Source: an uncultured Erysipelotrichaceae bacterium
Lineage (GTDB): Bacteria > Bacillota_I > Bacilli_A > RF39 > UBA660
Assembly (NCBI GenBank): GCA_902789425.1
Contig: CADANX010000012.1
Location: forward strand, 1-32,000
Direction: 5' to 3'
Length of the DNA stretch: 32,000 bases
Shown here: positions 1,904 through 18,699 of the stretch, piece after piece
Position numbering within the stretch: position 1 is the first letter of the stretch
Layout: every line of letters starts with the position of its first letter
Translations under genes and position numbers: made by a program
The notes under the pieces: generated by a model
Told to the model about the DNA's origin: nothing
Seen by the model: only the letters and a program-made list of their open reading frames with translations
Databases searched by the model: none

Positions 1904-2728
1904 ATGAAAAAAATTATTGGTTCAAGATTATTTTCATTTTTATTAGGAGCCATAATATTTGGTGGAATTGGTGTAGCAAGTGCATACACTCTTTTAGCAT
2001 CCGATACATCTTTTACTCCTAAAGATACTAGTTGGAGTGTTGATAATGTAGAAGATGCATTAAATGATATTCATAGAATAATGAATACAACAGCATTTAA
2101 AAAAATATGTCATTATGTTAATAGTGATTACTCAAAAGATGCATCAGATAAATATAGTATAGGAACAAAATACGAATGTGATCCAGGAGATGGAGTAAAA
2201 AGGAACTTTTATGTGCTAAAAACTAGTGGAGAAAAAGTGGATTTAATAATGGAAGAAAATATAGCAAAAGGTACATTAACATGGTATAACGCAATGAAAT
2301 ATTTTACAGATGGTGCAGGAACTTCAATAAAATCTTCCTGGACAAATGTACAAGATATAGATTTACCAAAAGCACAAGATATAGCAAATGCTGTTGGTAG
2401 AAGTAGTTGGAAAGCAGCAGAAAACAGTACATGGTGGTGTTTAGAGAGTCATAAACAAGACTCTGGAAGTAGTCCATATTGTTATAATAATGATGGTAAT
2501 TTAGAAACATTATGGTTATGGGATTATTTAAGAGAATGTGCTAGTTGGAAATGTGAACATAGTTTAAACTCAGAATGGGCATATGGATATTGGACGAGAG
2601 ATGCAATAGTTAATACCGCGAATGCTTGGTATGTCGATAGGCATGGCGGTCTGGACTACGACACTGCATCGAATTCCACGCGCCGTGGGGTTCGCCCAGT
2701 TATAACGGTTTACCGTTCTAATCTCTAA
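1904..2728 (+). CDS. DGR target (variable) protein: N-terminal membrane anchor/signal, C-terminal DUF1566/C-type-lectin-fold-like variable domain
   Basis: Hydrophobic N-terminus LFSFLLGAIIFGGIGVASA. The C-terminus ...GYWTRDAIVNTANAWYVDRHGGLDYDTASNSTRRGVRPVITV resembles the WxxS...AWxV...G...VRPV ends of DUF1566-type DGR targets. VR occupies codons ~237-266 of 274. Confidence 0.85.
   Translation: MKKIIGSRLFSFLLGAIIFGGIGVASAYTLLASDTSFTPKDTSWSVDNVEDALNDIHRIMNTTAFKKICHYVNSDYSKDASDKYSIGTKYECDPGDGVKRNFYVLKTSGEKVDLIMEENIAKGTLTWYNAMKYFTDGAGTSIKSSWTNVQDIDLPKAQDIANAVGRSSWKAAENSTWWCLESHKQDSGSSPYCYNNDGNLETLWLWDYLRECASWKCEHSLNSEWAYGYWTRDAIVNTANAWYVDRHGGLDYDTASNSTRRGVRPVITVYRSNL
2614..2699 (+). repeat. 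DGR variable repeat (VR)
   Basis: 86 nt align without gaps to 4776..4861. The 12 mismatches are at 2630, 2636, 2642, 2648, 2649, 2654, 2657, 2660, 2681, 2682, 2684 and 2685, and each corresponds to an A in TR. The segment is a GC-rich island in AT-rich DNA. Confidence 0.92.
2704..2717 (+). other. Hairpin (aacgg-ttta-ccgtt) 5 nt downstream of the VR/TR homology end; candidate DGR cruciform/IMH-associated element
   Basis: 5-bp stem with a 4-nt loop, read directly. It is present only on the VR side; the TR flank at 4862 onward is unrelated. Confidence 0.5.
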
Positions 2729-2806
2729 TCTCTAGTGGGAGTATCAAAATATAAGCGTGAATATATGTAAAATAAAAGAATAGAGCATGAAAGAAAATAA
2801 AAAAAT

Positions 2807-2839
2807 ATTTTAGTGGGAAGTGAATCTTCCTACTAAAAT
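2807..2839 (+). other. Strong hairpin between the target gene and the MSL gene
   Basis: 14-bp stem 2807-2820/2826-2839 (one G.U) with loop tgaat. No T-tract follows, so it is not a classical terminator. Confidence 0.5.
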
Positions 2840-2861
2840 TGATTTAAAATAGGAGGAAGAA

Positions 2862-3281
2862 ATGTTATTTGATAAATATAAAAAATATAAAAATGAATAT
2901 AATGAATATATTATTTTTATTAAAAGTGGAAATTTTTATTTAACATTTAACAAAGATGCATACGTACTTCATAATGTTTTCTCTTATAAAATTAAAGAAA
3001 CAAAAAATGGATATAAATCAGGATTCCCTTTAAATGCTATTTCTAAAGTAGAAGATAAATTAAAAGAATTAAATATTAATTATATAATTATTCAAGAAGA
3101 TAATATAAAAAAGAAACAAGATTTTAAAAAGAATACTTATTTAAATTATGTAGTAATGAAAAATTATTCAATAATTTATAAAAGAATAGATATGATTAAT
3201 AATATCTTAAAAGAAAATATAGATAATAATATTGAAGATATTTTAAGTGAAATTGAAGGAGTATTATGCAAGATAAATTAA
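2862..3281 (+). CDS. MutS domain I-like small protein (MSL-type DGR accessory protein)
   Basis: Strong RBS aggagg. IIFIKSGNFYLTFNKDA...GFPLNAISKVEDKLKELNINYIIIQ parallels the MutS mismatch-binding domain (LFYRMGDFYELFYDDA...GIP...L...G..VAI.EQ). The 3' end overlaps the avd start. Confidence 0.65.
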   Translation: MLFDKYKKYKNEYNEYIIFIKSGNFYLTFNKDAYVLHNVFSYKIKETKNGYKSGFPLNAISKVEDKLKELNINYIIIQEDNIKKKQDFKKNTYLNYVVMKNYSIIYKRIDMINNILKENIDNNIEDILSEIEGVLCKIN

Positions 3282-3610
3282 TTATTGCCACTAAAACTAA
3301 GAAAACAATTGAATTAATTGAAAAGACAATTATTAATTTTCCCCATAAAGAAAGAAATTTAAAAAATAGACTTGCAAACACTTGCTATGATTTACTTGAA
3401 AATATATATTATGCTAATATCACAAAAGAAATTAACTCAATGAAAAAGATTATAGTTAATATTAAAATGATAGATTATTTTCTAAAATTAAGTTGTAACA
3501 GGGAATTGATCAGTTTAAAAAAATATGAGCAAATAGGTAATTATTTACTTGAAATAAATAAAATGGTTAACATATGGATTAAAAATGAAACGAGTAAACA
3601 AAATATATAA
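3266..3610 (+). CDS. avd: Accessory variability determinant (Avd; four-helix-bundle / 23S rRNA-IVS protein family)
   Basis: 114 aa, directly upstream of and overlapping the RT gene. FPHKERNLKNRLANTCYDLLENIYYAN fits the FPKxExxxLxxQxxRAxxSIxxNIAEG pattern of this family. RBS aaggag. Confidence 0.75.
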   Translation: MQDKLIIATKTKKTIELIEKTIINFPHKERNLKNRLANTCYDLLENIYYANITKEINSMKKIIVNIKMIDYFLKLSCNRELISLKKYEQIGNYLLEINKMVNIWIKNETSKQNI

Positions 3611-4694
3611 TGATATAACATCTTTAGAAAATATTATGAATATGTATGATACTAAAGTAAAACCAAACACAAAAAACAAAATAAAAATAGAAAAGTTTGA
3701 TGATTACTATACAGAAAATATAATGAGCATAAAAAATATTTTGGATAATAAGGTATATGATGGTGGTAAATATAACTTATTTGTCATTAAAGATCCTAAA
3801 GTAAGATTAATAATGAGTCAAAACATAGGTGATAAAATTATTAATCATTTGGTAAGTCATTATTTTTTAGTAAAATATTTTGATAAGAGTTTAATAAATG
3901 AAAATGTATCAACAAGAGTTGATAAAGGTCTTCATTATGGAATGAAATTGTTAAAAAAATATTTAAATGAATTAAAAGGGAATAGTTTTTATATTTTAAA
4001 ATTTGATATAAGTAAATATTTTTATAATTTAGATCATGATATTATTAAAAAATTAATTAGGAAAAAAATAAAAGATAAGGATGCACTTAATATATTGGAT
4101 AAGATAATTGATAGTACAGATAAAGATTATATAAATATCGAAATAGATAGATTGGAAAAATTGCATAAAGTTCAATTACCAAGATATAAAAAAGGTAAAG
4201 GACTACCTATAGGAAATATGTCTAGTCAAATACTTTCAATTATTTATTTAAATGAACTTGATCATTATATTAAAGAAGAATTACACATAAAGTATTATAT
4301 AAGATATTGTGATGATGGGATTTTAATCCATAACGATAAAGAATACTTAAAATATTGTTTAAAAGAAATAGAAAAAATTATTGATAAATATAAGTTAAAA
4401 TTAAATAATAAAACAAGTATAATTAATATTAATCAAGGATTTACTTTTTTAGGATATAGATATTATATAAGAAACAATAAAGTATATATGAATATTAAAA
4501 GCGATGTAAAAAGAAGAATTAAAAGAAGATTTAAGGGCTTAAAGAAAATGATAGAACAAGGATTAATAACCAAAGAATATTTTTTAAGTGTAGAAAATAG
4601 TTATAAATCACATATGAGTTACGGTAATTGTAATAGTTTCATCAAAAATGCGATAAATAAATATCATAATGATATATTTAATAATGAAGAATAA
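3585..4694 (+). CDS. DGR reverse transcriptase
   Basis: RT motifs present: LPIGNMSSQ (the DGR hallmark [ILV]GxxxSQ) and the YIRYCDDGILIH catalytic YxDD box. 369 aa with no maturase or endonuclease extension. Lies next to TR. Confidence 0.92.
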   Translation: MKRVNKIYNDITSLENIMNMYDTKVKPNTKNKIKIEKFDDYYTENIMSIKNILDNKVYDGGKYNLFVIKDPKVRLIMSQNIGDKIINHLVSHYFLVKYFDKSLINENVSTRVDKGLHYGMKLLKKYLNELKGNSFYILKFDISKYFYNLDHDIIKKLIRKKIKDKDALNILDKIIDSTDKDYINIEIDRLEKLHKVQLPRYKKGKGLPIGNMSSQILSIIYLNELDHYIKEELHIKYYIRYCDDGILIHNDKEYLKYCLKEIEKIIDKYKLKLNNKTSIININQGFTFLGYRYYIRNNKVYMNIKSDVKRRIKRRFKGLKKMIEQGLITKEYFLSVENSYKSHMSYGNCNSFIKNAINKYHNDIFNNEE

Positions 4695-4725
4695 TTGAAA
4701 AATTATATTAATATTGTGGTAAAAT
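4695..4725 (+). promoter_or_regulatory. Possible promoter for the TR-containing RNA
   Basis: ttgaaa (4695-4700) and an extended -10 tgg-taaaat (4717-4725). The spacer is 19 nt, which is long, so this is tentative. Confidence 0.3.
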
Positions 4726-4775
4726 TATTATGGTATATACTGAATGGTTTAGTTTTCTATGCGTCTAGGCTGTTT

Positions 4776-4861
4776 TACCGCGAATGCTTGGAATGTCAAT
4801 AGGAATGGCAATCTGAACAACAACACTGCATCGAATTCCACGAACAATGGGGTTCGCCCAG
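4776..4861 (+). repeat. DGR template repeat (TR)
   Basis: Invariant copy of VR with 28 adenines and 11 in-frame AAY codons (reads ...ANAWNVNRNGNLNNNTASNSTNNGVRP). All 12 VR differences are at TR adenines (4792, 4798, 4804, 4810, 4811, 4816, 4819, 4822, 4843, 4844, 4846, 4847). Confidence 0.92.
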
Positions 4862-5019
4862 ATTCCTTTAAAACTTTGTTTTATGTTACTATGGTATATA
4901 AAGAGAAGCTAAAGGAAACAAGTATATCCCACTCTAGAAATAGAGAAATAAATATCATAGATGATTTTAAGTGTTAGTAGTAATAATATGAAAATGATTA
5001 AAATCTATAGACTATGATC

Positions 5020-5063
5020 AAGAACTAATTTCTTATATTGTTGATTAGTTCTTTTCTTTTTTT
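5020..5063 (+). terminator. Rho-independent terminator closing the DGR cassette
   Basis: 10-bp arms aagaactaat (5020-5029) / attagttctt (5044-5053), followed by a T-rich run tttcttttttt. Confidence 0.75.
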
Positions 5064-5109
5064 ATAATTAAATATGATACTTTACTTAAAGTAATTTAAA
5101 TTAAGGTAT

Positions 5110-5138
5110 TTGACAAAAACAATTATTTTTGGTATTAT
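5110..5138 (+). promoter_or_regulatory. Sigma-A-type promoter (TTGACA - 17 nt - TATTAT)
   Basis: -35 ttgaca at 5110-5115, a 17-nt spacer, and -10 tattat at 5133-5138. The predicted start falls at about 5145, the first base of the GTGAGCAC box. Confidence 0.6.
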
Positions 5139-5144
5139 TTAATC

Positions 5145-5184
5145 GTGAGCACTGGAAAAGACTACGGTCTTCCAGTCTTTTTTT
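5145..5184 (+). ncRNA. Small RNA module 1: GTGAGCAC box + hairpin + U-tract (candidate Abi-associated RNA)
   Basis: gtgagcac at 5145-5152. Hairpin 5151-5176 with 7+3 bp, a 2-nt bulge and loop tacg. T-run at 5178-5184. Confidence 0.45.
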
Positions 5185-5241
5185 GTATATTTATAACATT
5201 TTTTACATATACTATCTATGTAGGAATATAATTTCCTACTA

Positions 5242-5277
5242 GTGAGCACACAAAAGATTATTCTTTTGTGTCTTTTT
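5242..5277 (+). ncRNA. Small RNA module 2: GTGAGCAC box + hairpin + U-tract
   Basis: gtgagcac at 5242-5249. Hairpin 5248-5271 with a 9-bp stem and loop attatt. T-run at 5273-5277. The flanks match module 1 but the stem sequence differs. A tataat at 5227-5232 lies just upstream. Confidence 0.45.
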
Positions 5278-5278
5278 C

Positions 5279-5287
5279 TGCTATAAT
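5279..5287 (+). promoter_or_regulatory. Extended -10 promoter element (TGcTATAAT) upstream of the abi gene
   Basis: tg at 5279-5280 and tataat at 5282-5287, 19 nt upstream of the ATG at 5306. Confidence 0.45.
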
Positions 5288-5305
5288 GGTTTTAGGGATG
5301 ATTAT

Positions 5306-6235
5306 ATGTCAGAAAAAACATTTTTAACTATTGATGAATTAATTGATAAAATAAAATCTAAAAATATTAGTATTAAAGATGAAAATGATGTTAGAAATAT
5401 TTTAGAAACTAATAATTATTATTTTATTATGGGTTATAAGTTTGCTTTTAAAAACATTGATGGAACTTATAAAGATAACACTTCTTTTGAAGATATATAT
5501 TCATTATATATTTTTGATAAGATGTTAAAATTAATTATTTTAGATCCTATACTTGAAATAGAACAAAAACTAAAAACAATATATACTAATAATTATAGTT
5601 ATAGATATGGCTTTAAAGTTAATGATATATTAGATCATAATAATTATGATTTATCAAATAATTATTTAAATGATACATTATCTAATTTAGATAAACAATT
5701 AAATGATTTTGGTAATAAAAATAAGGCTGTTATGTTTTATAGAAATAATCATTCATTTATTCCATTATGGGTATATATGAAGATATTATCATTTGGTATG
5801 ATTCGTGATATGTTTTATATATCAAAAAATAATGACAAAGATTACATGAAAAATAAACTAACTAATGAAAATATAAGTAGTAGCGAAGTAGCCAATATGC
5901 TAAGATTACTTGTTAGAGTTAGAAATATATGTTGTCATGATGATATTCTTTTATCATTTGTAGATGATAAGTTAGGTATTAAAACTACTAAATATCATAA
6001 TGAGTTTAAATTAAAGAAAGATATAAATGGTAATGTAATTCAAGGTAAAAAAGATTTGTTTGCTATTTTAATTGTTATTAAGTGTTTTTTAAACAAAGAC
6101 AAATTTACAATATTAATTAATAATTTAGTAATGTTAATCGAGGAATATGATAAGGAAATTGGCTCACTTAATAAAAAACAGTTATTATCAATAATGCATT
6201 TGCCAGAAAAAATTGAAAAATTAAAAGATTTATAG
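5306..6235 (+). CDS. Abi_2 family (AbiD/AbiF-like) abortive-infection protein, HEPN-type
   Basis: The N-terminal ...NYYFIMGYKFAFK..., the YIFDKMLKLIILDPILEIEQKLK block and LLVRVRNICCHDD (RNxxxH, codons 206-211, nt 5921-5938) follow the Abi_2 pattern. Confidence 0.8.
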   Translation: MSEKTFLTIDELIDKIKSKNISIKDENDVRNILETNNYYFIMGYKFAFKNIDGTYKDNTSFEDIYSLYIFDKMLKLIILDPILEIEQKLKTIYTNNYSYRYGFKVNDILDHNNYDLSNNYLNDTLSNLDKQLNDFGNKNKAVMFYRNNHSFIPLWVYMKILSFGMIRDMFYISKNNDKDYMKNKLTNENISSSEVANMLRLLVRVRNICCHDDILLSFVDDKLGIKTTKYHNEFKLKKDINGNVIQGKKDLFAILIVIKCFLNKDKFTILINNLVMLIEEYDKEIGSLNKKQLLSIMHLPEKIEKLKDL

Positions 6236-6329
6236 TGCATTTTATGTTAAAATTTGTTATAATTTATATAGAAATTAACCTAAATAAAAATTTCCAAACG
6301 TCTATAACTGACGCACCATATAAAAAATA

Positions 6330-6356
6330 AAGAACTATTTTAGTTCTTTTTTTTGT
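6330..6356. terminator. Bidirectional intrinsic terminator between abi (+) and ORF 6377..6742 (-)
   Basis: 8-bp stem aagaacta/tagttctt (6330-6337/6341-6348), A-run upstream and T-run downstream. Confidence 0.7.
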
Positions 6357-6376
6357 TTTTTTCTAAAAAAAAAGAA

Positions 6377-6742
6377 TTACTTTCCAGCAGCAATTCTTAA
6401 AGCTTTTTTAAAGCCATCTTCTTCTTTTTTATCTTCTTGTTTTAATTTTAATTCAGAATTAATAATATTTAAATACCATATTAAGTCTATTTTAGATAAT
6501 TCTTTTCCTTCAAGTTCAGGAAATACATCAGTAAAACTTTTAGTATTAACAACATGATATTTATTTAATTTATTTTCTTTATCAAAAAAAACTATTTCTG
6601 ATAATACTTCTTTATAATTATTATTAAATTCAAATATATATTGATGTTCAGTTACTTCAAAAACAACACCAATACTATTTTTGTCTTCATTTTTTTGTAA
6701 GTTTCCAATTACTAAATTATTTACTTTATATTCTTTTTTCAT
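6377..6742 (-). CDS. Hypothetical protein (121 aa)
   Basis: Start moved to the internal ATG (6742-6740, MKKEYKV...), which has a GGAGGG RBS. No recognisable motif. Confidence 0.55.
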   Translation of the reverse strand: MKKEYKVNNLVIGNLQKNEDKNSIGVVFEVTEHQYIFEFNNNYKEVLSEIVFFDKENKLNKYHVVNTKSFTDVFPELEGKELSKIDLIWYLNIINSELKLKQEDKKEEDGFKKALRIAAGK

Positions 6743-6839
6743 AAAAAACCCTCCAAAGTGGTAATTATTATAACATACTTTTATAAAATGTGTTAACATT
6801 TTTTATTTATTGTATTAAAATGAAAAAGGAGGGTTTGAA

Positions 6840-14907: not shown

Positions 14908-17900
14908 ATGAAAGCTAAGTTAAATAAATTTAAAGACATCTTTATTAGTAACAATAAGAACACAATAATATCTATAATTGTTTTATTGTGTGTTTTTGCG
15001 TCTTTAACTTATTTTAGATATGCTGCTATTGCTAAAAATTATATTGCTGCTGAAGTTACTTTTAATAATCAAAATACTGGTTTAACATCAAATAATGTAC
15101 AAGATGCATTAGAAGAAATATATGCAAGATCAAATGGTGCAACAACATTTAATAAAAATTATGTTTTAATTCAATTTGAAACAGATGGTGGAACTGAAAT
15201 TCAATCACAATATGTTGCAAAAAATTCAGCAATTACAAAACCAACTAATCCAACAAAGGCAGGTAAAGGTTTTAAAGGGTGGAAAGATCAAAATAATAAT
15301 ACCTTTACAAATTTTGCAGGTGGAACTTCAACAAATTTAGTTTTAACAGCTGAATGGGGAAATTTATATACAGTAAACTTTTATAAAGTTCTTAGTAATA
15401 ATCAAACTGAGTTATATCAAACTAAAAGTGTAGTCTCAGGTGAAACAATATCTAATTTTCCTGGATCACCTGGAATAGTATCAGGGCAAAAATTTGTTGG
15501 TTGGGGTACAACAACTGCTTGTAGTACATTTTTTAATAGTACAGATACTGTAACTAAAAGTATGGATTTATATGCATGTTATACTGCTGAAACAATAACT
15601 ATTACATATGATGGTAATGGTGGAGGATGGACTCAAGGAGAAGATTTTTTAGCAGCCAAAGAAAGAACAGTTGCAAAAGGTGTAAAATTATCTCAATCAG
15701 GTAATATTCCTGAAAATCCATCAAAAGCTAATAGTGTATTTAAGTATTGGACTGAAACAGAAACTAATCAAAGTTCTCAAACTGATGCTTTACAAAATAG
15801 TTATAATGCTAATATAACTTTATATGCATATTATAAAAATTTATATACAGTAACTTTTGATTCAAATAGTGGTAGTTATGTAAGTTCAATATCCGTCGAA
15901 GATGGTAACAAATTTACAAAACCAACTAATCCTACAAGAAGTGGTTATAAATTTAAAGGATGGTATTCTAATTCAACTTTAACTACAGAGTATACTTTTG
16001 ATAATAATGGTAATTCATCATCTACTGTTACTTCTAATCTTAAATTATATGCAAAATGGACTAAAGTACATACAGTAACATTTGTAACAAATGGTGGTTC
16101 AACTGTTGAAAGTCAACTAGTCGAAGATGGAAATAAAGTAACTGAACCAACAACTACAAGAAAATATTATAATTTTGAAGGTTGGTATAGTAATATATAT
16201 ACTTCAGGAAATACTTATAATTTTAATAATTCTGTAACATCTGATTTAACTTTATATGCAAAGTGGTCTTATGATCAAAATTGTTTATTAAAGATAGTTT
16301 ATAAATTTGATGAATCAGGAATAGATAATCCAGATGGACTTAATTTTATTAAAGATAATCTTCAATTAGATATGACAAATGAAAATATGAAAAATTTATT
16401 TGCAACTCCATCTAAAACAAAAAATGATCATAATTATAATTTTGAAGGTTGGGCTTTATCTAGTGATGAGGATGAATTTGTAGGGAATATATATACAGCG
16501 GATCATCCTTATGATATAACAAGCTTATACAAGAATAATTCTTTAACCAAAAAAACATTATATCTATATGCTATATATAAAAGTGAACCAAGAACAGCAA
16601 GCTTTTATGGACAAGGTGCAACATCTGATAATCAAGAAAATATTACTAAATCTTGTTTTTCATATAATACAAGTCCTACATGTTTAGTGAGTATTCCTAG
16701 TTATTCATATAATTCATATAGTTTTGATGGATGGTCTTCTAGTGCTAATTCATTTGAAACTGTTGAATCAATGAAAAATAAAACGAGTATGTCAATAGGT
16801 TCTAATGTAAGTTATTATGCTGTATTTTCAACATCTATAGGAAAAACGTTCCATGCTAATAATAATTCTTTTGAAGGTGTTACTGCTGATACATCTACCG
16901 TTTCATGTACAATTTATAATATTCAATCATCTTGTGAAATAACAACACCAACAATTCAAGGTAATCAATATACACCTACTGTAATTGGTTATACTACAAA
17001 CCCTAAATTTACTTATGAAGAAGGTGCTGAAATACTAGGTTCAGGAATTAAAATAACTATTTCAACTAATGGCGGAGATTATTATGCGCAAACTAGTAAT
17101 GTTAGTCCTGAAACTAATACTTGGACAGCTACTTATAAAACAACTGATGGTATTGATAAAATAGGTGCTAATTCAGATTCTTGTATTATTCCTTATGTTT
17201 ATAATGGTGAATTAACTACTAATACATGTAGTATTACATTACCAAGTATTGAGTTACTAGAGGGTTATAGAAATCCAGTATGGAATGATGGAAGTAATAA
17301 TTATGCAGCTGAAAAGAAATATATATTAAGAAAAAATACTGATATTACTGCTACTTGTGCATTAAAGAGTTATAATATTTCATTTGTAACTAATGGTGGT
17401 AGTGCAGTTGAAGAAATGAAAGTTGATTTTAAAAAGAAAATTAAAGAACCTACTAAACCTGAAAGACTTGGCTATTACTTCTTAGGTTGGTTTAAAGATG
17501 AATCACTTGAAACACCTTGGGATTTTGAAAAAGATGTAGTTATGGGACATACAACATTGTATGCAAAATGGGAATTAATTTTCTATGTAATTACATTTGA
17601 TACAAATGGTGGTTCTACCGTGGATAAACAAGCACTTAATTATGGACAAAAAGTTGTTAAACCAGAAGATCCAGTTAAGATAGGATATAATTTTAAAGGC
17701 TGGTACACAGATCCAGATTTTACTAAGAAATATGATTTTAATACTGAAGTTAAATCTAATGTTAATTTATATGCAAAATGGTCTAAAGATGATGGATCAA
17801 CATTAGAAATTAAATCTAAAAATAAATCTGGTGGTTCTATAGTAGTATCAAAAAATGATGATGTTACAAGTAAGATTGCTATTTATGAAGATAATGAAGT

Positions 17901-18699
17901 AACTGGTGCAGAACTAGATAGTATTAAAAATAATTATTTTCAAATAGCAGAAGGAATATATGTAATTGATACTAAAGTAAAAGATAAAGATGGAAATGAA
18001 CTTAATGTTTCAAGTAGATACTTAACTTATAAGATTCCTGTTCCAAAAGGAATGAGTAAATATGATAACATAATGCTTTATCAAATGATTGATACAAGTG
18101 TAACTGAATTATTCTATACAATAGAAAAGAATAATATAGTATTTACTGCTCAAGGTACTGGAAGATATGTAGTTGTTAAATATGCTAAGAATGAAATATT
18201 AGATAGTAAGAATAACGAAAATGCAATAAATGTTAATAGTAGGCTTGCTGAAATAATAAAAGATTTTTATGTTTCAGAAGTTGTAGGTACAGAAAAAAGT
18301 ACAATAGTTAGAAAATTATTTGATTCAGCAGACAATGTATTTATATTTGATACAATAATACTTGATTCAAATGGTGATGAAGTAGAAACAGGAAATGAAA
18401 AAATTACATTTATTGTTAAATTACCAGATGATTTTGATGAAGATAATTTAAAACTATATCAAATTGTTGATGGAGAAAAAATTGAAGTTGATTTTGATGT
18501 TGTCAATGGTAAATTAATGTTTATTTCTAACAGTGCCGGAAGATTTGCATTAGCAGTAAATGAAGATTCAGAAGATGAAGAAACAGAAACATCTGGTAGT
18601 AAGGCACCACTATTTATTGGTCTTGGTGTTGTATTATTAGCAGCAGGTGCTACTGGTGGATTTATGTACTTTAAAAAGAAAAAAAATAATACTATGTAA
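14908..18699 (+). CDS. Large surface protein with multiple Listeria-Bacteroides (Flg_new/InlB B-repeat) repeats and N- and C-terminal hydrophobic anchors
   Basis: Repeated ~70-aa units of the form Y.V.F..NGGS.V......G.K...P..P.+.GY.F.GWY........F......L.LYAKW. C-terminus PLFIGLGVVLLAAGATGGFMYFKKKK. Confidence 0.8.
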   Translation: MKAKLNKFKDIFISNNKNTIISIIVLLCVFASLTYFRYAAIAKNYIAAEVTFNNQNTGLTSNNVQDALEEIYARSNGATTFNKNYVLIQFETDGGTEIQSQYVAKNSAITKPTNPTKAGKGFKGWKDQNNNTFTNFAGGTSTNLVLTAEWGNLYTVNFYKVLSNNQTELYQTKSVVSGETISNFPGSPGIVSGQKFVGWGTTTACSTFFNSTDTVTKSMDLYACYTAETITITYDGNGGGWTQGEDFLAAKERTVAKGVKLSQSGNIPENPSKANSVFKYWTETETNQSSQTDALQNSYNANITLYAYYKNLYTVTFDSNSGSYVSSISVEDGNKFTKPTNPTRSGYKFKGWYSNSTLTTEYTFDNNGNSSSTVTSNLKLYAKWTKVHTVTFVTNGGSTVESQLVEDGNKVTEPTTTRKYYNFEGWYSNIYTSGNTYNFNNSVTSDLTLYAKWSYDQNCLLKIVYKFDESGIDNPDGLNFIKDNLQLDMTNENMKNLFATPSKTKNDHNYNFEGWALSSDEDEFVGNIYTADHPYDITSLYKNNSLTKKTLYLYAIYKSEPRTASFYGQGATSDNQENITKSCFSYNTSPTCLVSIPSYSYNSYSFDGWSSSANSFETVESMKNKTSMSIGSNVSYYAVFSTSIGKTFHANNNSFEGVTADTSTVSCTIYNIQSSCEITTPTIQGNQYTPTVIGYTTNPKFTYEEGAEILGSGIKITISTNGGDYYAQTSNVSPETNTWTATYKTTDGIDKIGANSDSCIIPYVYNGELTTNTCSITLPSIELLEGYRNPVWNDGSNNYAAEKKYILRKNTDITATCALKSYNISFVTNGGSAVEEMKVDFKKKIKEPTKPERLGYYFLGWFKDESLETPWDFEKDVVMGHTTLYAKWELIFYVITFDTNGGSTVDKQALNYGQKVVKPEDPVKIGYNFKGWYTDPDFTKKYDFNTEVKSNVNLYAKWSKDDGSTLEIKSKNKSGGSIVVSKNDDVTSKIAIYEDNEVTGAELDSIKNNYFQIAEGIYVIDTKVKDKDGNELNVSSRYLTYKIPVPKGMSKYDNIMLYQMIDTSVTELFYTIEKNNIVFTAQGTGRYVVVKYAKNEILDSKNNENAINVNSRLAEIIKDFYVSEVVGTEKSTIVRKLFDSADNVFIFDTIILDSNGDEVETGNEKITFIVKLPDDFDEDNLKLYQIVDGEKIEVDFDVVNGKLMFISNSAGRFALAVNEDSEDEETETSGSKAPLFIGLGVVLLAAGATGGFMYFKKKKNNTM

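Follow-up and report, generated by a model that had tools for sequence, protein, structure and literature searches.

The 32,000-nt stretch of DNA analysed here (positions 1–32,000 of contig CADANX010000012.1 from an uncultured Erysipelotrichaceae bacterium; hereafter the window) contains a cassette of ~1.1 kb on the + strand (5108–6235) that is composed of a promoter, two small RNA modules and abiF, a gene for an Abi_2 family protein with a HEPN motif. The cassette is probably a compact abortive-infection system of the AbiF type, organized like a type III toxin–antitoxin (TA) system and equipped with a different RNA partner. Judged from sequence, the protein is in the known AbiF family and the upstream RNA is a motif different from RF03085, the abiF RNA motif of Rfam. 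A preliminary description of the locus had proposed an AbiF/non-coding RNA (ncRNA) pair resembling a type III TA system, a proposal supported by protein homology, by the covarying modules linked to the gene and by the mobility of the block. By analogy with the studied AbiF systems, the small RNA would most likely be the antidote of AbiF.

The AbiF protein

The open reading frame (ORF) at 5306–6235 (+ strand) encodes a protein of 309 residues that is a true member of the AbiF family. This assignment is solid because Pfam, PADLOC, sequence comparison with the PDB and the predicted fold agree. The protein matches Pfam PF07751 (Abi_2) with E 1.9e-33 and 116.7 bits (cut-off 25.6), is labelled AbiD (AbiD/F group) by PADLOC (E 1.4e-45), and appears in PHROGs as an abortive-infection protein. 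The RNxxxH motif that had been read at 5921–5938 is R206-N-I-C-C-H211 and fits the HEPN pattern R-[NHD]-x-x-x-H; across 17 homologues, with identities as low as 41%, R206, N207 and H211 never vary. In a sequence search of solved structures the sole real match is 8VZ6 (‘PbAbiF dimer bound to ncRNA’; E 7.5e-14, residues 4–212), whose RNSCCH aligns with the RNICCH of the window protein.

An AlphaFold2 model built with the 17 homologues has a pLDDT (predicted local distance difference test) of 90.4 and aligns with 8vz6_A over its full length in Foldseek (E 2.9e-10, TM 0.75/0.78, probability 1.00). No other significant match to the model was present in the PDB, Cas13 structures having E>1. With one HEPN motif in 309 residues, the protein differs from Cas13 systems, which are recognized by a two-HEPN effector, identical repeats and variable spacers. 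Homology to characterized AbiF proteins suggests that it is a putative RNase toxin of the AbiD/F group that would act as a homodimer.

Structure of the RNA modules

The small-RNA promoter, P1 (5110–5138, + strand), combines a −35 hexamer TTGACA (5110–5115), a 17-nt spacer and a TG-extended −10 element TATTAT (5133–5138). The preliminary description had called this promoter near-consensus, and it scores 11/12 plus the TG, the top promoter-like site within 4600–6500. Its predicted start lies 0–3 nt ahead of a box, GTGAGCAC, of which the 32 kb contain exactly two copies (5145 and 5242), both on the + strand and 97 nt apart. Shuffles place the chance level at 0.08 copies, and two copies were seen in none of 100 shuffles. 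As had been described, both boxes lead directly into a hairpin with a U-tract behind it.

The first box opens the canonical module, module 1 (5145–5184, + strand), which reads GU, GAG, a bulged C, ACUGGA, a bulged AA, AGAC, the loop UACG, and then GUCU, UCCAGU and CUU before the U-run. Its hairpin (A5151–U5176) consists of 6 bp, the AA bulge, 4 bp and the loop, and is followed by C and U7, so that an RNA of ~35–40 nt is predicted. Module 1 has a minimum free energy (MFE) of −14.2 kcal/mol (z −3.2) and scores 61.2 bits (E 3e-12) against R1, the covariance model of the family described below. Module 2 (5242–5279, + strand) is a diverged copy with the same box, basal helix and GUCUUUUU tail and a plain upper stem; its hairpin (A5248–U5271) has 10 bp and a UUAU loop, is followed by CUUUUU, and has an MFE of −13.4 kcal/mol (z −4.3). 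It is the sole terminator-like site in a scan of the region, where 0.2 were expected, and is predicted to double as a terminator between the RNA and abiF. The stretch that spans both modules (5145–5279; 135 nt) folds at −40.3 kcal/mol with z = −6.2.

In both window modules, base pairs form between GAG in the box and CUU in the tail and between AC and GU, with the intervening C bulged out. The flanks of the two hairpins are conserved in both copies, as the preliminary description had noted, but they are not simply single-stranded: they pair as a common basal helix, GAG-C(bulge)-AC ... GU-CUU. The upper stems differ. Copy 1 is topped by a 2-nt 5′ bulge, a 4-bp helix and a UNNG loop; copy 2 has a plain 10-bp stem.

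Between the modules lies a middle hairpin, GUAGGAA-UAUAAU-UUCCUAC (5220–5239, + strand), which ends 2 nt ahead of box 2. Single-sequence folds predict it in 19/19 two-module homologues, where its arms vary (GUGGGAA, GUGAAGA, GUGGAAU, CUAUAAGAA and others). The hexamer tataat at 5227–5232, formerly suggested as a second promoter, is unlikely to be one because it forms the loop of this hairpin and is not conserved, reading TGTAAT, TATATT, TTCAAT or CAACGT in close homologues. In the window the 3′ arm of the middle hairpin could pair with the ribosome-binding site of abiF, but this complementarity is not kept in the one sister-clade sequence that was checked by eye (locus L015), and the idea was rejected. 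We also rejected a small peptide encoded in 5129–5249, where the only ORFs, of 28–37 aa, overlap the hairpins and none has a ribosome-binding site.

Conservation and covariation of the modules

Our sample comprises 80 genomic and 18 metagenomic loci that encode AbiF relatives. Every locus with a protein at least 37% identical and enough upstream sequence has the same layout: a TTGACA-type promoter, the box, a bulged hairpin, GUC with a U-run, the linker, the middle hairpin, a second module with its own box, hairpin and U-run, a TGnTAnAAT element, a ribosome-binding site and ATG. In every homologue clade the TTGACA and −10 element precede the box, at 6–9 nt, and a TG-extended −10-like element precedes the start codon, at 20–30 nt. 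Alignment of homologue upstream regions, which the preliminary description had put forward as a check, thus recovers both the box and a covarying hairpin in the qualifying loci.

The modules are kept with the gene across homologues of 37 to 89% protein identity, and their stems covary. Box variants track the protein clades, with GUGAGCAC above ~64% identity, GUUCAGAAC or GUUUAGAGC at 45–53%, and GUYUAGWRC at 37–41%. Most loci have two modules, and a small number have one. Canonical structure is common to both copies in the more distant clades but confined to copy 1 in the clade of the window. Module 2 shows A-U to G-C compensatory changes in two homologues (L011, L023) and a re-written stem in a third (L090).

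An alignment of 33 distinct modules (A3) was used to evaluate the proposed structure. It pairs 94.4% of cells, compared with 82% when columns are shuffled (0/500 shuffles reach the observed value) and 26–53% when the partners are slid. Compensatory changes occur at 6 of the 12 pairs, in 54 cells. RNAalifold, applied to 19 full-length RNAs, recovers both module hairpins, with covariation at 11 of 17 pairs. In the basal helix, one pair is G-C 30 times and G-U 3 times, and another (columns 11–40) is A-U 27, G-U 4 and G-C 2 times across the family. The many G-U pairs of the alignment would turn into C-A mismatches if the opposite strand were read, which places selection on the + strand, in keeping with the promoter and the U-runs.

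The same pairs bear on the possibility that a transcription factor uses the GTGAGCAC boxes as DNA operators, as their near-palindromic form (GTG..CAC) and 97-bp spacing might suggest; a sister-clade variant, GTTCAGAAC, is a 9-bp palindrome. Other variants, however, are non-palindromic (GTTTAGAGC, GTTAGTAC), the cassette includes no DNA-binding protein, and the neighbours differ at every locus. Because the box pairs with the tail through G-U pairs and compensatory changes, selection acts at the RNA level, and we consider operators very unlikely. Pairing of box 1 with box 2, or RNA dimerization through the near-palindromic box, was also entertained; it fits GUUCAGAAC and GUUUAGAGC but not GUUAGUAC and was dropped, box–tail pairing inside each module being preferred.

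R1, the covariance model built from A3, matches 36 homologue loci and the window, always 5′ of the gene and on the same strand. An nhmmer profile from the same alignment places the modules 83–344 nt 5′ of the gene, all on the gene strand. R1 has no further match at E≤1 in 566 kb, nor did anything else match in the ~1.1 Mb searched in all; none was found in 55+ loci of Abi_2 paralogues (≤35% identity) or the phiC2 locus, nor, in a separate search, in the PbAbiF loci. At the level of sequence, then, the features of the cassette are conserved, covary and are linked exclusively to the gene.

These results also address a purely cis-acting role. In that case the modules would serve as tandem intrinsic terminators or attenuators, protecting a toxic gene from transcription that enters from upstream, and the RNA itself would do nothing in trans. 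A hairpin with a U-run is present in each module, hairpin 2 is the only terminator-like site of the region, and copy 2 is a generic stem; in the Clostridioides difficile AbiF system, moreover, premature termination is part of the regulation (PMC12373285). Against this role, a conserved near-consensus promoter 6–9 nt before a terminator is the layout of a small-RNA gene and not of an insulator, and the cassette always has its own promoter. The base (CUG/CAG), the bulges and the ACU-NNG-GU top retain their primary sequence while protein identity drops to ~40%, and no other terminator resembles R1 in the ~1.1 Mb. A role confined to cis is therefore unlikely in our assessment.

Two ~40-nt repeats ~97 nt apart, beside a family that has been proposed as ancestral to Cas13 (PMC12737573), might also be viewed as a miniature CRISPR-like array of two repeats and a spacer that guides a Cas13-like ancestor. 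The sequence between the repeats is not a variable spacer, however, because it is conserved among homologues and holds a covarying hairpin. The repeats are non-identical, single-module loci exist, and no cas genes are present among the annotated ORFs of the window. We regard an array of this kind as highly improbable.

Some individual loci depart from the common pattern. L014 (2800–3000) has an extra promoter-like TTGACA...TATAAT and ~150 nt between module 2 and the gene, so the leader of the cassette can expand. In L023 and L097, which are identical in sequence, the Abi gene matches residues 29–135 of the query only and looks disrupted; module 1 is intact (57 bits) and box 2 is altered (GCAAGCGC).

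Comparison with known AbiF RNAs and type III systems

The PbAbiF–AbiFr pair of Prevotellaceae was reportedly described by Zilberzwige-Tal et al. (Cell, 2025), according to papers that cite that work. AbiF with its upstream ncRNA is presented as a type III TA system and as a proposed ancestor of Cas13 (PMC12373285, PMC12737573), and the PbAbiF dimer is described as binding its ncRNA, with a single-stranded RNA bulge blocking the HEPN site (PMC12737573, PMC13064643). The literature to which the preliminary description alluded does exist; the published motif, RF03085, differs from the RNA of the window. This motif is credited to Weinberg et al. 2017 in PMC12373285.

Searches with RF03085 returned nothing in the window, either at E≤10 (211-nt and 1.9-kb searches) or at the gathering score (whole window), and 20 homologue loci were likewise free of matches that reach the gathering score. 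Rfam as a whole, run against the region, the window and 20+6 homologue loci, yielded no abiF or other credible family and only a sub-threshold RT-14. The positive controls were recognized, with 37.6 bits on phiC2 and with 58.5 and 55.7 bits directly upstream of PbAbiF and of a close relative. The two motifs have in common a position 5′ of Abi_2 genes, a hairpin of ~40 nt and a U-rich tail. The RF03085 consensus CCCGCC-A-AGC...GCU-CAAAUC-GGCGGG, however, has no counterpart in R1: its outer and inner stems have 6 and 3 bp, its loop has 11 nt, and a CAAAUC internal loop lies on the 3′ side, whereas the bulges of R1 are on the 5′ side.

The PbAbiF pair resembles the window cassette in its Abi_2 HEPN protein with an RNxxxH motif, in a small structured RNA on the same strand directly 5′ of the gene, and in the proposed logic, in which the RNA blocks the toxin (type III TA). 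Protein identity is only ~20%. PbAbiFr is a single RF03085 hairpin (58.5 bits) with a conserved 3′-side CAAAU internal loop, while the window RNA has 5′-side bulges, a 4-nt UNNG loop and usually two copies with a hairpin between them. Both end in a G-UC-U-run tail, which is GGGUCGUUUUAUUUUU in PbAbiFr and CAGUCUUUUUUU in the window.

The AbiFCd–RCd22 pair of C. difficile (phi027/phiC2 prophages) is similar in layout, with a sigma-A promoter, an ncRNA containing two repeated hairpin motifs, a Rho-independent terminator and abiF (PMC12373285). RCd22 has two RF03085 motifs (37.6 bits on phiC2) and a terminator 5′ of abiF, measures ~100–130 nt, and neutralizes AbiF both in cis, by termination, and in trans, by binding (PMC12373285). 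AbiFCd and the window protein are ~26% identical over 60% of their length. AbiFCd–RCd22 is borne by prophages, in the lysis module, whereas close homologues of the window AbiF were found in none of the phage or viral collections searched. ToxIN/AbiQ systems likewise have tandem RNA repeats 5′ of an endoribonuclease toxin, with a terminator between them, and act by abortive infection (PMC13064643). The ToxN/AbiQ fold is unrelated to HEPN, and ToxI consists of several identical repeats that are processed by the toxin, in contrast to the two non-identical repeats seen here, each with a terminator-like end.

Other AbiF subclades have further upstream hairpins, which RF03085 likewise fails to detect. 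A G-UC-(G)-U-run tail is common to all AbiF-associated RNA types seen, PbAbiFr included. One metagenome-assembled genome (MAG), at L002, encodes a second Abi_2 paralogue (925–1876; 295 aa, RNIAAH) 2 kb 5′ of its R1-type cassette; this paralogue is preceded by its own distinct hairpin, CCUAGG...CCUAGG, which ends in GUCUUUUUC and has no R1 match. A large clade of Abi_2 paralogues with 31–35% identity occurs in the same kind of gut Bacilli (L025–L080, e.g. L035 2998–3924). These loci have no R1, no RF03085 upstream in the seven that were scanned with Rfam, and only a TGATATACT-type −10 element; they may be AbiF-like genes that have no RNA partner or an unrecognized one. The flanks of L035, a divergent gene of 323 aa and a downstream ORF of 368 aa, look chromosomal. 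Yet another upstream hairpin accompanies two distant AbiF homologues with 24–28% identity (L099 ~1390–1470 and L101 ~160–230); it ends in GGUCGAUUUUAUUUU or GGGUCGUUUUUAUUUU and has no RF03085 match at E≤1.

Proposed mechanism

Transcription of the cassette, RNA binding, inhibition, toxicity and defence would proceed by analogy with the two studied systems. The strong sigma-A promoter would start transcription at the box and yield an abundant small RNA, of ~40 nt if it stops at module 1 and ~135 nt if it extends to the end of module 2. Each module would form a bulged hairpin in which the box and the GUCUU tail make up the basal helix. Binding of the RNA to the AbiF homodimer, each subunit taking at most one module, may then block the HEPN site; this step is modelled on PbAbiFr, which is single-copy, and on RCd22, which has two motifs. 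Because the two terminators would insulate abiF from the strong promoter and leave it to its own weaker extended −10 element, the RNA would be in excess. A drop in RNA supply, for instance through shut-off of host transcription or degradation of RNA by a phage, would free AbiF to cleave cellular or phage RNA and arrest growth.

We also put forward, with slightly less than even confidence, that the R1 module represents a second antidote class for AbiF, showing no detectable kinship with RF03085, in which each repeat is a self-contained mini-gene. Transcription would begin at the box, which would define the 5′ end of the RNA, and stop at the module's own terminator, which would define the 3′ end. 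AbiF would recognize the bulged basal helix (GAG-C-AC / GU-CUU) in place of the 3′-side CAAAU loop of AbiFr.

Several observations weigh against reading the locus as a toxin–antidote pair. The RNA has no RF03085 match even at E≤10 and hence no demonstrable homology to proven antitoxins. Each module resembles an intrinsic terminator, and part of the conservation could therefore reflect termination alone. In the clade of the window, module 2 scores only 11.3 bits against R1, which is background; the selection on structure that had been proposed from the two stems is borne out by covariation across homologues, but the two copies are not a single covarying hairpin (61.2 versus 11.3 bits). Nor are two copies obligatory, as L021 and L089 each have a single module. 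Finally, abiF has its own promoter here, a conserved TGnTATAAT, whereas none lies between RCd22 and abiF.

Remaining features of the leader

The promoter assigned to abiF, TGCTATAAT (5279–5287, + strand), is an extended −10 element (TGnTATAAT), as the preliminary description had recognized, and has no −35 element; it has a counterpart in all homologue clades. A ribosome-binding site read from the sequence, AGGGAUG (5294–5300, + strand), lies 5 nt ahead of the ATG. Modules 1 and 2 are joined by an AU-rich linker (5185–5219, + strand), in which GUAUAU ... AUAUAC are conserved columns of a further alignment (A4) and where a possible weak hairpin (5185–5212) is predicted in most homologues, though not all. 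Within 5183–5213 the pair TTGTAT ... CATATAyTAT is conserved across clades with a spacing of 18–20 nt. This TTGTAT...TATAyT pair may serve module 2 as a weak promoter, giving a second RNA that starts at the middle hairpin, or may instead form the arms of an AU-rich hairpin; as a promoter, it has a −35 element that matches at 3/6 positions only and the same 18–20-nt spacing.

Downstream, an AT-rich hairpin, AAGAAC...GUUCUU (6329–6356), sits between an A-run and a U-run and separates abiF from a convergent ORF (6377–6799). From its sequence it is likely a bidirectional terminator, and it escaped the terminator scan because it has too few G-C pairs.

Genomic context of the cassette

The clade of cassettes to which that of the window belongs is found in uncultured gut Bacilli (‘Tenericutes’/RF39-like MAGs). 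Similarity to homologue cassettes starts at 5107/5108, 2–3 nt ahead of the −35 hexamer, and the block from there to 6234 (stop codon) recurs in >15 unrelated neighbourhoods. Its non-coding and coding parts are conserved to similar degrees (80.1 versus 80.6% in L090, 74.8 versus 78.3% in L089 and 79.3 versus 84.2% in L023). By these comparisons, the promoter, RNA and gene move as one unit. None of the window's neighbour genes accompanies the cassette in any of ~100 homologue loci.

A complete diversity-generating retroelement (DGR; 1904–5006) lies 5′ of the cassette. It contains a target ORF (1904–2728) with a variable repeat (2614–2699), a MutS_I-like ORF (2862–3281), bAvd (3266–3610), a reverse transcriptase (RT) gene (3585–4694) and a template repeat (4776–4861). 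The template and variable repeats are 86% identical, and all mismatches fall at template adenines. The RT-14 RNA match at 4862–5006 is sub-threshold (35.2 bits, against a gathering score of 48.1) and belongs to the DGR. Since the template repeat and this weak match end only ~100 nt upstream of the cassette, the modules could in principle be part of the DGR, for example of its RNA. RT, bAvd or the target gene is found near the cassette in 0 of ~100 homologue loci, however, and similarity to these loci begins only at 5107/5108, which makes a DGR origin hardly credible.

A Mob_Pre plasmid-recombination (relaxase) gene (359–1615; E 1.8e-31) precedes the DGR, and from 6840 onward there are genes of housekeeping type (GDPD, RluA-type pseudouridine synthase, RNase T). 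The combination of Mob_Pre, DGR and Abi cassette suggests an integrated mobilizable island. The cassette would stand at the edge of this island, and its adjacency to the DGR is incidental because the homologue loci are without these neighbours. Further along, 14908–18699 encodes a protein of 1263 aa with six Listeria-Bacteroides repeat domains (Flg_new, E 1e-93), probably a surface protein.

Searches of mobile-element collections gave the following results. Two pattern scans of IMG/VR returned 58 loci, of which R1 scored 2, at 25–28 bits. The two IMG/VR places that were read (L122, L163) are unrelated sequence, and neither phage carriage nor phage-encoded mimics of the RNA were found in these scans and the phage and viral collections. 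A tblastn search of plasmids, in which lactococcal AbiD/AbiF were sought, found only remote Abi proteins with 22–28% identity in other genera.

Implications

AbiF–ncRNA pairs were shown in 2025 to be type III TA defence systems, and both of the RNAs studied experimentally belong to RF03085. In the present case, an entire AbiF clade has a different, well-supported RNA module that is absent from Rfam 15, which extends a known system and does not define a new kind. If the RNA is confirmed as the antidote, the cassette would represent a second solution to RNA recognition by the same toxin fold, its covariance model would annotate such loci, and it would offer a 1.1-kb test system for the co-evolution of a HEPN toxin with its RNA partner. 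If such RNAs do constitute a second class of antidote, AbiF-type HEPN toxins would be able to exchange or re-wire their RNA partner while keeping the inhibitory logic, a plasticity that the proposed transition from AbiF to Cas13 would require.

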